Source: a virus
Lineage: Duplodnaviria; Heunggongvirae; Uroviricota; Caudoviricetes
Strand: one strand, 5' to 3'
Length of the DNA: 5,340 nt
Virus record (IMG/VR): IMGVR_UViG_2521172589_000005
In this document: in pieces, positions 3,055 through 5,340 of the stretch
Numbering within the stretch: the stretch's first letter is position 1
Layout: every line of letters begins with the position of its first letter
Program-made: the position numbers and the translations under genes
The notes under the pieces: generated by a model
The model's input: the letters and a program-made list of their open reading frames with translations, nothing else
Databases searched by the model: none
What the model was told of the DNA's origin: nothing

Positions 3055-3477
3055 GTGGCAAAAGTTTTTACACAAGAAGAGCGGGAAAAAATTAAAGGGC
3101 AGGTGGTGGAACTCGTGCGCCAGAGCGGTCGTGAGACGTTACGGCAACTGGAAGCTAAAACAGGTGCGACTAGATATCTGATGAGCGTTCTTGCCAGAGA
3201 GCTGGTAGCCAGTGGCGATGTATACAACTCCGGCTACGGGTTATTCCCGTCTGAACAGGCGCGTAAGGACTGGCAAAACGCCCGCAAAAAACTCTCGAGG
3301 GCAAAGGTGAAGAAAACAGCTGTGGTTGATCCGGACCTTATCTGGTCGTTACCTGATGGAGAAATACGTCGCTACGACAGTCGCCTAAACATAATCTGTC
3401 GCGAGTGCCGGAAGAGCGAAGCTATGCAGCGTGTACTGGCTTTCTACCAGGGTAATTTTCAGGAGGCGGTACTGTGA
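3055..3477 (+). CDS. Hypothetical protein, 140 aa, in the slot where a helicase loader (P or DnaC-like) is normally found
   Basis: GTG start at 3055 preceded by a strong AAGGGGGA Shine-Dalgarno 5-6 nt upstream. No Walker A motif visible, so it is not a DnaC-like loader. Single CxxC (CRECRK) near the C-terminus. Function unknown. Confidence 0.75.
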   Translation: MAKVFTQEEREKIKGQVVELVRQSGRETLRQLEAKTGATRYLMSVLARELVASGDVYNSGYGLFPSEQARKDWQNARKKLSRAKVKKTAVVDPDLIWSLPDGEIRRYDSRLNIICRECRKSEAMQRVLAFYQGNFQEAVL

Positions 3478-3714
3478 GTGAAATTAGCTATCAGGCTTCA
3501 ATTGCCGCTGGCATTCGCATCAAAGGAGAGGAGCATGGAAATAAAACCAGAGGATTAGTTAAGCAATATCGTTTTATTTCCGATAAAAGAGGATGACCCT
3601 CGTAATCAGGTTAATTTTCTTTATGAGCCATCGGAAAGACCATATTGCCATCACGCTTCTGTCCGGGTTGACGAAAAAGAGCGTCAGGTCCGCTGTAAAA
3701 TCTGAGGTGCAGTT

Positions 3715-3891
3715 GTGGAGCCATTTGACTGGATGCTCTCTGTGGCGAAAAGAGAAACCAGACTGGCAGATGATGTAAGGCTCTTGCGCCAGGAGGAACG
3801 GGAAAGGCGAAAAAATATAGAAAAGCTAATTCAGATTGAGCGTAACGGGAAAGCGCGGATACGCAGGGTGACAAAATCCAGAACTGAATAA
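3715..3891 (+). CDS. Small basic, coiled-coil-like protein, 58 aa (hypothetical); below the ORF-track cutoff
   Basis: GTG at 3715 with GAGGTG Shine-Dalgarno 5 nt upstream. Product VEPFDWMLSVAKRETRLADDVRLLRQEERERRKNIEKLIQIERNGKARIRRVTKSRTE, stop TAA 3889-3891. Competes with the listed minus ORF 3611..3943, whose translation looks non-protein-like. Confidence 0.4.
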   Translation: MEPFDWMLSVAKRETRLADDVRLLRQEERERRKNIEKLIQIERNGKARIRRVTKSRTE

Positions 3892-3984
3892 TTAAATTTA
3901 GCACTGTTAAAAATTTAATCCTTAACCGGAGGGATTTCTGCACCCTCAGAACATCAGGAGGCCGCCCGAAAGGGCGGTAGTTAA

Positions 3985-4122
3985 ATGCGAAAGTTTAAAA
4001 TAATTATTGAAACGGGAATAGCCGGTGGAGATTTCGAGGATGAATTCGAAGTGGATAATGATGCGACGCCTGATGAAATACATGACGAAGCAAAAGATAT
4101 TTTCTTTAACTACTGCAATTAA
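3985..4122 (+). CDS. Very acidic small protein, 45 aa (hypothetical)
   Basis: ATG at 3985, stop TAA 4120-4122. Product MRKFKIIIETGIAGGDFEDEFEVDNDATPDEIHDEAKDIFFNYCN has 13 Asp/Glu in 45 residues. AGGAGG at 3955-3960 is separated from the ATG by a GC hairpin (3961-3978). Confidence 0.45.
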   Translation: MRKFKIIIETGIAGGDFEDEFEVDNDATPDEIHDEAKDIFFNYCN

Positions 4123-4159
4123 TCATATCACGAAATAAAAGACGAGGAGGAAGAACAAA

Positions 4160-4336
4160 ATGGCTGATTTTGGTTCAACTAAATACAACGTCGGTTTTGA
4201 AGAATGGCATGAACTGTTAATGGACTATGCAGAGTTACGTGGTGGCAGTGCTGCTGATGCTGAAGCATGGCGTGATGATTATGAAGCAGGAAAAACTCCG
4301 GTCGAAGCATATTGTGATGAGTGGGGCGATGAATGA
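4160..4336 (+). CDS. Very acidic small protein, 58 aa (hypothetical)
   Basis: GAGGAGG Shine-Dalgarno at 4144-4150 and ATG at 4160. Product MADFGSTKYNVGFEEWHELLMDYAELRGGSAADAEAWRDDYEAGKTPVEAYCDEWGDE has 16 Asp/Glu in 58 residues. Stop TGA 4334-4336 overlaps the next ATG (ATGA). Confidence 0.55.
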   Translation: MADFGSTKYNVGFEEWHELLMDYAELRGGSAADAEAWRDDYEAGKTPVEAYCDEWGDE

Positions 4337-4648
4337 GCGAGGTTAATTATCAGGAAGGGCATGAAACGGCGGGGCAAGCAAAAACAGTGGCATGGCGATA
4401 TCGCTACGTGAAAAAAAGGCGTTACGGACTTTCAGGGGAAGTAGTGGTCTGGTGACTGGAAATATGTACCGAAAAAAGAGGATTGTAACGATAGGCAGAA
4501 CTATGAAATTCAGGCCTTATTCACTGCCCCGCCAGTCCCGGTTACATCAGAAGAACTGGTTAAAGCTGTGCACTTTTATGAACAACTAAAACGCGAAAAT
4601 CCACCAGCATCCGGAAACCTGATTACAGATTCCCAGATAAGGCAATGA
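4333..4648 (+). pseudogene. Frame-split gene: 40-codon ORF (4333..4455) abutting a 67-codon protein-like frame (+1, 4445..4648) that has no start codon; frameshifted pseudogene or recoding candidate
   Basis: ATG 4333 is coupled to the upstream stop; this frame ends at TGA 4453-4455 in a TGA-C context. The +1 frame opens at 4445 and encodes ...DWKYVPKKEDCNDRQNYEIQALFTAPPVPVTSEELVKAVHFYEQLKRENPPASGNLITDSQIRQ with no ATG/GTG/TTG before codon 42. The track ORF 4392..4589 in the third frame looks non-coding. Confidence 0.35.
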
Positions 4649-4818
4649 GCTACCTGGCGCAGAACGGGCTGATAAGTATGGGGAATGTTTTACGATGAAT
4701 ATTTAGACTAAAGAGTTTGTAACGCTATGTAAGTGATTTTTTCTGGTTTAGATATTTATATGTCCGGCTAAATTGAGGTGTGTTTAAATGTTATTGCACA
4801 TTGATTGTAGGGGGAATA

Positions 4819-4998
4819 ATGAAAAACGCATTGCAGTTTTTGTTTGTTGCGTTCTGGTTGTTCGCATCATGTATGCCCATCATCTTCACAGCAAGGTATA
4901 TGGAAAAAGTTGATGTTTTGATATTAATATTTGGATATATAAATGCCCTTTTTTTAGGGGTGTTCATGGCGGTCATGTGCATTGAATACTGGCGGTAA
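4819..4998 (+). CDS. Small hydrophobic protein, 59 aa, two predicted transmembrane helices (hypothetical)
   Basis: Internal ATG at 4819 of track ORF 4780..4998, with AGGGGGA Shine-Dalgarno 4 nt upstream. Product MKNALQFLFVAFWLFASCMPIIFTARYMEKVDVLILIFGYINALFLGVFMAVMCIEYWR has two hydrophobic segments of about 20 residues. Sits in a visibly AT-rich islet (about 4680-5000). Confidence 0.55.
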   Translation: MKNALQFLFVAFWLFASCMPIIFTARYMEKVDVLILIFGYINALFLGVFMAVMCIEYWR

Positions 4999-5052
4999 AT
5001 ACAGCGAACTCCATTGGTTTAGTTGGATATTTACTGTGCTGGACAAAACGGT

Positions 5053-5080
5053 TTGCGGGGAAATCTTAGTTAAGTAGAAT
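5053..5080 (+). promoter_or_regulatory. Putative sigma70 promoter of the hok mRNA
   Basis: -35 TTGCGG (5053-5058), 16-nt spacer, -10 TAGAAT (5075-5080). Predicted start near 5087, immediately upstream of the tac-like element. Confidence 0.5.
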
Positions 5081-5087
5081 GACTGCG

Positions 5088-5255
5088 GGTGCTTGAGGCT
5101 ATCTGCCTCGGGCACGAACACCAACGGCAGGTAGAGAAAAGCCCCAGTTAACATTACGCGTCCTGCAAGACGCTTAACATTAATCTGAGGCCAATTTCAT
5201 GCTAGACACATGTAGGTTAGCCTCTTACGTGCCGAAAGGCAAGGAGAAGCAGGCT
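5088..5255 (+). promoter_or_regulatory. hok mRNA leader with tac-like 5' element and Sok-target region
   Basis: CTTGAGGCTATCTGCCTC (5092-5109) closely resembles the 5' tac element of plasmid R1 hok mRNA (CTTGAGGCTTTCTGCCTC, from memory). TAGCCTCTTAC...GCAAGGAGAAG..GGC.ATGAA upstream of the start likewise parallels the R1 mok/hok initiation region. AAGGAG Shine-Dalgarno at 5241-5246. Confidence 0.55.
5140..5207 (-). ncRNA. Putative Sok-like antisense RNA (boundaries approximate)
   Basis: On the minus strand: -35 TTGCCT (complement of 5237-5242), 17-nt spacer, -10 TAACCT (complement of 5214-5219), the same layout as the R1 sok promoter (TTGCGC-17-TATCCT). Transcript would be antisense to the hok leader. 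The 3' end is not defined; there is a GCGTC/GACGC hairpin near 5157-5172 but no clean U-tract. Confidence 0.4.
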
Positions 5256-5340
5256 ATGAAGCAGCAAAAGGCGATGTTAATCGCCCTGATCGTCATCTGT
5301 TTAACCGTCATAGTGACGGCACTGGTAACGAGGAAAGACC
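5256..5340 (+). CDS. hokD: Hok-family type I toxin, N-terminal 28 codons only (gene runs off the window end)
   Basis: ATG at 5256 with AAGGAG 9 nt upstream. Translation MKQQKAMLIALIVICLTVIVTALVTRKD matches the HokD (RelF)/Gef N-terminus and transmembrane segment as I recall them. Location on the dicC side of a Qin-like prophage fits hokD. Confidence 0.8.
   Translation, partial: MKQQKAMLIALIVICLTVIVTALVTRKD

Follow-up and report, generated by a model that had tools for sequence, protein, structure and literature searches.

A truncated DUF7167 gene and an intact gene for a small acidic protein in the delayed-early region of an Escherichia coli prophage

Introduction

Two short open reading frames in tandem, both coding for strongly acidic products, raise the question of whether a lambdoid prophage of E. 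coli carries anti-defence proteins. The frames, ORF1 and ORF2, lie in a stretch of 5,340 nucleotides of Caudoviricetes DNA (IMG/VR record IMGVR_UViG_2521172589_000005), referred to here as the window. The initial annotation proposed from charge and position that their products are DNA mimics or other anti-defence factors. On those grounds the proposal is plausible. Small size and strong acidity are properties tied to DNA mimicry (PMC9836394). The small size, the acidity and the early-region position ascribed to ORF1 and ORF2 have all been borne out. If the proposal were true, the factor would be very widespread because the segment is found in nearly half of the complete E. coli genomes. It would also close a gap, as to our knowledge no Gam-like RecBCD inhibitor is known from the Rac/Qin-type lambdoid phages.

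Both proteins are already present in RefSeq, Pfam or PHROGs as uncharacterised families in thousands of genomes, and the window adds no new kind of element beyond these resources. What is gained is a more precise description of the pair. ORF1 represents a 60-aa gene, normally coupled to ORF2, in the form of a rare nonsense allele, both families are under strong selection, the acidity of ORF2 is conserved, and the searches made found no link between either family and known anti-defence proteins. The anatomical part of our explanation (genes, families, truncation and context) can be given with high confidence; the functional part is graded below.

Prophage setting and distribution

The whole window is 99.9% identical to a near-complete lambdoid prophage located beside ompW in E. 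coli strain 1EC213. The first part of this prophage runs through int, xis, a recE-like exonuclease gene, ydfD, dicB, ydfC, ydfB, DUF1391 and the repressor gene. Divergent from the repressor are cro, a YdaT-like gene, an O-like gene, DUF977 (a Ren-like PHROG) and the small genes ORF1 and ORF2, which are followed by hok/sok, rem, DUF968, rusA and Q, and then by the lysis and morphogenesis genes. The region of ORF1 and ORF2 is a nin-like delayed-early stretch of a Qin/Rac-type lambdoid prophage and the counterpart of the lambda nin region. It had initially been described as a cargo region; it is instead the stretch from the replication genes to the Q antiterminator gene, and it holds no cargo or moron island.

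A scan of the plus strand from 3400 to 5340 for sigma-70-like promoters and intrinsic terminators detected none, ahead of ORF1 and ORF2 or elsewhere. Since no promoter-like site precedes them, the two genes are probably read with the early rightward operon, which would mean transcription upon induction or infection and silence in the lysogen. The positions of the features discussed here are collected in Table 1.

Table 1. Coordinates of genes, gene remnants and signals in the window
Feature	Position	Strand	Description
Upstream pseudogene	3478-3891	+	137-aa zinc-ribbon-like protein (phrog_1621) when intact
Shine-Dalgarno-like hexamer AGGAGG	3956-3961	+	23 nt 5' of the ORF1 ATG; read from the sequence
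Stable GC hairpin GCCGCCC-GAAA-GGGCGGT	3961-3978	+	between the Shine-Dalgarno hexamer and the ORF1 start codon
ORF1	3985-4122	+	truncated 45-aa allele of the DUF7167 / phrog_1997 gene
Premature stop TAA	4120-4122	+	TAC = Tyr46 in the canonical allele (alignment with vB_EcoS-640R1)
Former DUF7167 codons 47-60 and stop (SYHEIKDEEEEQNG*)	4123-4167	+	untranslated in the window
ORF2 Shine-Dalgarno AGGAGG	4145-4150	+	inside the former DUF7167 tail
ORF2	4160-4336	+	intact, 58 aa, acidic, three-helix (model); phrog_519 C-terminal module; RefSeq WP_000753057.1; without Pfam family
Downstream pseudogene	4333-4698	+	intact alleles 119-171 aa, start MSEINYQEGHE...
sok antitoxin RNA	5087-5261	+	Rfam RF01794 match, 107.8 bits

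The segment is common. Of 5426 complete E. coli genomes, 2543 contain a 561-bp stretch around ORF1 and ORF2, which also occurs in a few sequenced temperate coliphages. Two records place E. coli-type sequence elsewhere. Phage PP818812.1, whose recorded host is Actinobacillus pleuropneumoniae, has the E. coli prophage segment at 94% identity, and the E. coli-type gene pair lies on a 3-kb contig (JAIHTM010000290.1, L084) of a 'Collinsella sp.' MAG. The host label of the former and the binning of the latter look doubtful.

Both open reading frames are genes under purifying selection

The composition of both products was correctly described at the outset. ORF1 encodes 45 aa with 28.9% Asp plus Glu, a net charge of -9 and 6 aromatic residues, and ORF2 encodes 58 aa with 27.6% Asp plus Glu, a net charge of -12 and 9 aromatic residues. 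The calculated pI is about 4.05 for both, and the two head the acidity ranking of the prophage's 45 annotated proteins. Together with full-length DUF7167 (net charge -15), they fall within the description of DNA mimics as small and strongly acidic (pI about 3-4.5).

Frames this short, overlapped by minus-strand ORFs of 43-45 aa, could in principle be chance ORFs in a non-coding or antisense-coding stretch. The selection analysis rules this out, as pN/pS is about 0.10 in the annotated frames against 1.0-3.4 in the others. The ORF1 value is 0.098 in frame and 3.4 in both others (30 full-length alleles); that of ORF2 is 0.106 in frame and 2.0 and 1.0 in the others (27 alleles). A comparison of ORF2 with an Enterobacter allele gives 28.3 synonymous and 15.7 non-synonymous differences (pN/pS 0.135). 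It is the overlapping minus-strand ORFs that are spurious, because the constraint sits in the frames of ORF1 and ORF2. Matches to curated Pfam and PHROG families, confident AF2 models and homologues at 35-60% identity in other genera further argue against chance ORFs, the probability of which is practically nil. Both families are genuine coding genes under strong purifying selection.

ORF1 is a nonsense allele of a DUF7167 gene

ORF1 passes the gathering threshold of Pfam PF23768 (DUF7167) with 41 bits against a cut-off of 24.4, but it covers positions 1-52 of the 60 in the model and not the full-length domain. The 60-aa form of the protein scores 55.1 bits over positions 1-60. ORF1 likewise matches phrog_1997 at E 2e-23 over positions 1-45 of 57, and RefSeq lists a protein identical to it, WP_001441843.1, under the name 'DUF7167 family protein'. 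The coordinates and composition first assigned to ORF1 stand, but 45 aa is not the length of the gene itself. Protein searches show that the family form has 60 aa and a C-terminal end ...NYCNYSYHEIKDEEEEQNG. The version of the gene in the inducible phage vB_EcoS-640R1 likewise codes for 60 aa, and DNA alignment places a TAC codon there at the site of the TAA in the window.

The stop codon is rare. An exact 53-mer spanning the site has TAA in 39 complete E. coli genome records and TAC in 777. A tally by locus, made on the first 83 loci retrieved (L001-L083), has the 45-aa allele in 5 and the 60-aa allele in about 70.

In the AlphaFold model of the 60-aa protein (pLDDT 79), residues 2-9, 16-23 and 46-51 form strands and residues 29-40 and 53-59 form helices, which amounts to a predicted beta-beta-alpha-beta fold with an acidic C-terminal helix. 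According to this model, the stop in the window deletes the third strand and the C-terminal helix. The lost tail of 15 codons has a pN/pS of 0.16 in full-length alleles. ORF1 in the window is most likely inactive, and the anti-defence proposal is unlikely to apply to it, because the nonsense mutation costs the protein a conserved quarter of its length.

The ORF1 leader and the ORF1-ORF2 junction

The ORF1 leader combines a Shine-Dalgarno-like hexamer with a hairpin placed between it and the start codon. The GGAG of the hexamer is invariant in 19 distinct upstream variants. The RNA of 3940-4000 folds at -18.6 kcal/mol (z -2.5), and the hairpin is kept in diverged loci, where 92.5% of cells are paired. 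Covariation in these loci does not exceed that in shuffles, and it was dropped as support since the shuffles score as high. Folding of the hairpin would move the Shine-Dalgarno near the ORF1 AUG. Hairpins that draw the Shine-Dalgarno and the AUG together occur in T4 genes 38 and 25.

In the full-length form, the DUF7167 stop overlaps the ORF2 start by 8 nt (ATGGCTGA), an arrangement found in 77 of the 80 loci chosen via DUF7167. ORF1 and ORF2 of the window lie 37 nt apart, and the overlap site is at 4160-4167. Judged from the sequence, the TAA at codon 46 would uncouple ORF1 from ORF2. The purine-rich codons of the acidic DUF7167 tail (GAC GAA GAG GAA GAA) double as the Shine-Dalgarno of ORF2. 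The sole base in 3478-4336 that is private to the window lineage, G4146, falls here: it turns GAAGAGG into GAGGAGG and gives a stronger ORF2 Shine-Dalgarno in an allele without coupling to ORF1. Strain CP53 has the TAA stop and lacks G4146.

Decay of the segment

The genes on either side of the pair are also broken. Relative to phage vB_EcoS-640R1, the upstream gene has two stops, at 3556-3558 (GAA to TAA) and at 3703-3705 (TGC to TGA), and RefSeq flags the gene in strain 1EC213 with 'internal stop'. The downstream gene carries a +1 frameshift in an A-run at 4411-4417, which is A6 in intact alleles, A7 in the window and A8 in vB_EcoS-640R1; RefSeq flags it as 'frameshifted; internal stop' and treats both flanking genes as pseudogenes. 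The interval 3478-4698 contains four disabling mutations (two nonsense mutations in the upstream gene, one in ORF1 and the downstream frameshift), and ORF2 is the sole intact gene of four adjacent ones. Between 3478 and 4336, comparison with a consensus built from 35 other alleles shows 14 coding differences in the window. Three of the 14 create stops where 5.2% would be expected (P = 0.034), a mild excess that fits either relaxed selection on a resident prophage or selection for the inactivation of its genes.

These changes could mean that the module in the window is a decaying remnant with no current function, in which ORF1 is inactive and ORF2 survives through its shortness only, the stops reflecting relaxed selection or selection for the inactivation of harmful phage genes. 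The four disabling mutations, the excess of stops, the rarity of the TAA allele and the presence of the decayed segment in an IS-ridden prophage remnant of strain CP53 all point this way. However, ORF2 is intact, its sole departure from the commonest allele being S12G at a variable position, it retains its own strong Shine-Dalgarno, strengthened by the lineage-private G4146, and the rest of the prophage is near-complete in strain 1EC213. We doubt that the module is such a remnant. This account concerns the state of the genes in the window and not the function of the families, and it is compatible with every other reading considered below. As a rare nonsense allele in a run of pseudogenes, the locus is in any case a poor experimental starting point.

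The same decayed segment, with the TAA allele and the frameshift, was seen in two prophages that differ in integrase and insertion site, namely the IS-ridden remnant of strain CP53 at rspB/ydfJ (L001) and the near-complete prophage of 1EC213 at ompW (L003). Its occurrence in two distinct prophages implies that even defective alleles are exchanged between resident prophages.

The ORF2 family

ORF2 matches positions 76-137 of the 143-position profile of phrog_519 at E 5.5e-22; neither Pfam nor NCBIfam has a family for it. When 1.84 billion representatives were searched exhaustively with HMMER, 74 relatives came up at E <=0.001, nearly all of them free-standing proteins of 48-70 aa. The ORF2 family also includes a few longer members of 127-151 aa with unrelated N-terminal parts. 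A search of the longer members for informative domain fusions gave a weak, sub-threshold match to DUF3331, and one apparent fusion, P0168, is a read-through from an upstream DUF1187 gene. A scan of genome contigs with a narrower alignment found relatives in only 3 species-representative genomes, which indicates that the family resides mainly in phages and prophages.

The members share the motif F-E-E-W (helix 1) ... GGSAAD-x-x-AW-x-x-DY-x-x-G-x-TP-x-x-AW-x-x-EWG. ORF2 agrees with both the profile and the motif, and its W16, W37, Y41, G44, P47 and W55 are conserved across distant members. Nearly every relative is acidic, the median net charge being about -10. The AF2 model of ORF2 is a three-helix bundle (pLDDT 80.6; helices 13-26, 35-42 and 47-55). 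The family consists of small, strongly acidic three-helix proteins (50-65 aa) encoded in the early regions (recombination, replication, ea and nin) of temperate phages of Proteobacteria.

Loci of the E. coli type nearly always have DUF7167 and ORF2 side by side, no matter which of the two genes served to pick them out. ORF2 is damaged in about 10 of the 80 DUF7167-selected loci. Elsewhere the neighbours differ. The Enterobacter cloacae complex has an ORF2 of 79% identity behind an Ead/Ea22-like gene, located either beside xis/int or, past O and P, in the nin region, and in a Serratia prophage ORF2 stands between an unrelated 107-aa gene and a NinX gene. More distant relatives directly follow RecT and YqaJ exonuclease genes (L087, L088), and another lies near genes for a Sak4-like ATPase and SSB (L090). 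Diverged DUF7167 also exists without ORF2. An obligate two-gene module is ruled out by these arrangements, and DUF7167 and ORF2 are independent small modules of a mosaic early region.

Genes of this mosaic have boundary motifs in common (L011, L167-L169), with N-termini of the form MS[EGK]INYQ... and C-termini ending ...KGE immediately before the next ATG. A chimera, P0028, has an Ead-like N-terminus fused to DUF7167. Conserved linkers are suggested to drive the shuffling of modules in the early mosaic region.

Comparison with known anti-defence proteins

Neither ORF1 nor ORF2 had a match in the PADLOC and NCBIfam libraries, and the lack of a PADLOC match led us to reject a role as a component of a defence system. 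No meaningful sequence match was found among solved structures, and Ocr, ArdA, Gam, gp5.9, Ugi and p56 were absent from the matches of both proteins. Fold searches returned generic matches (Z <=5.0), and a search of BFVD returned uncharacterised members of ORF2's own family only. Structure prediction followed by comparison with DNA mimics had been suggested as a check on the initial proposal; it showed no likeness to Ocr, ArdA or other mimics. Across sequence and fold searches, no likeness was found to a known mimic, whether Ocr, ArdA, Gam, gp5.9, Ugi, p56, AcrIIA4 or others. DUF7167, PF23768 and the PHROG identifiers do not appear in the EVADES anti-defence supplementary tables, nor are DUF7167, the RefSeq accessions or the PHROG identifiers mentioned in the literature searched. 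Such negatives carry little weight, because the folds of DNA mimics are highly varied, with none in common (PMC9836394). T7 gp5.9, for example, has a pI of 4.0 and no homology to Gam (PMC9836394).

The periodicity of helices and strands in sequences and models suggests acidic faces on both proteins. Dense Asp/Glu is shared with Ocr and ArdA, as is early expression, which for ORF1 and ORF2 is predicted. There is, however, no sequence similarity to either, and both are absent from the fold-search matches. Ocr and ArdA are much larger, elongated dimers.

The acidic, DNA-mimicking RecBCD inhibitors T7 gp5.9 and lambda Gam resemble ORF1 and ORF2 in small size, a pI of about 4 and early expression (again predicted for ORF1 and ORF2). 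gp5.9 has about 52 aa. Gam, Abc and gp5.9 sit beside phage recombination genes, as do the distant ORF2 relatives, a parallel that serves as a lead and not as a test. There is no sequence or fold match, however. Of the two inhibitors, gp5.9 forms a dimeric parallel coiled coil and Gam a helical dimer, while the models show ORF2 as a monomeric three-helix bundle and ORF1 as beta-beta-alpha-beta.

Small phage inhibitors with a beta-beta-alpha-beta fold include T7 Gp2 (an RNA polymerase inhibitor), T4 Dmd, AcrIIC3, AcrIC9 and AcrIE2. Profile comparison of DUF7167 with T7 Gp2 by hhalign gave a probability of 0.6% and an E of 0.089. Membership in the Gp2 family is ruled out at the sequence level, and the similarity in fold is generic.

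Possible functions

The mechanism that we put forward is possible rather than probable. Each of the two families may be a small stoichiometric binder or inhibitor that is active in early lytic growth. Its acidic face would occupy the basic, nucleic-acid-binding surface of a host protein, and the outcome would be anti-defence or host-takeover inhibition of the gp5.9/Gam/Ocr kind. The likeliest target class would be RecBCD or a restriction-type nuclease, which we favour because distant ORF2 relatives adjoin phage recombination genes. Only ORF2 could still act in this manner in the window, ORF1 being most likely inactive. The extreme and conserved acidity, the recombination genes close to distant ORF2 relatives and the Enterobacter homologues beside Ead/Ea22-like genes speak for such an inhibitor. 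Against it stand the lack of sequence or specific structural similarity to characterised anti-defence proteins and DNA mimics, and the small number of distant loci, a handful, on which the association with recombination genes rests. Acidity is also not specific, as the prophage encodes other small acidic proteins such as YdfB. Finally, resident prophages often carry these genes in inactive form (here, three genes in the run of four are defective), a frequency that fits dispensable accessory genes of any function.

A stronger form of the inhibitor proposal would make the ORF2 family, full-length DUF7167 or both a new anti-defence family, whose members serve as acidic decoys against a host DNA-processing immunity hub such as RecBCD, restriction or another nuclease-based system. 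We consider this unlikely. Given the 2543 genomes with the segment, such a family would be present in a large share of E. coli lambdoid prophages. The translationally coupled pair might then act on two targets or as a complex.

The mosaic of small, dispensable early genes to which ORF1 and ORF2 belong resembles the lambda exo-xis, P22 ead-type and nin genes, and it offers a different function. The two proteins could modulate phage development or host physiology in the manner of the lambda exo-xis/ea genes (Ea22, Orf60a, Orf61, Orf63 and Ea8.5) or nin genes, tuning the lysis-lysogeny decision, the efficiency of induction, or host replication or division, with no part in anti-defence. Ead/Ea22-like genes (PF13935) directly precede ORF2 homologues, in xis/int-proximal or nin positions, the Serratia homologue adjoins a NinX gene, and the gene-boundary motifs and chimeras such as P0028 add to the likeness. 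ORF1 and ORF2 are dispensable and often broken in resident prophages. Exo-xis genes are reported to influence lysogenisation and induction (PMC7093339, PMC3824215). Profile searches, however, found no homology of ORF1 or ORF2 to any studied exo-xis protein, including the characterised Ea22 and Orf63, extreme conserved negative charge is not reported for these proteins, and the class is itself mechanistically undefined. We regard a modulatory role as somewhat unlikely.

The proximity to recombination genes that favours a nuclease as target of the inhibitor can also be read the other way. ORF1 and ORF2 could assist the recombination or replication machinery of the phage itself, for example as acidic partners that regulate an SSAP, an exonuclease, SSB or an O/P-type protein, as has been suggested for P22 Arf. 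Small and acidic, Arf is required for full P22 recombination (PMC9836394). The RecT, YqaJ, Sak4-like ATPase and SSB genes adjoining distant ORF2 relatives are consistent with such a role, and so is the position of the window genes just after the O-like replication gene and DUF977. The pair nevertheless persists in prophages with different replication modules, and the neighbours of ORF2 vary so widely between phages as to argue against one fixed phage partner. We regard an accessory role as distinctly unlikely.

Other features of the window

Downstream of the decayed genes, an ORF at 4780-4998 on the plus strand would encode a very hydrophobic product of 72 aa. RefSeq has no annotation there, and the opposite strand is annotated 'hornerin' in a phage record. 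Its in-frame pN/pS is 1.6 (11 alleles), and neither strand offers a convincing frame. With no sign of constraint, it is probably not a further small gene. Beyond it lies the prophage's hok/sok type I toxin-antitoxin locus, whose hokD starts at about 5256 and extends past the end of the window.
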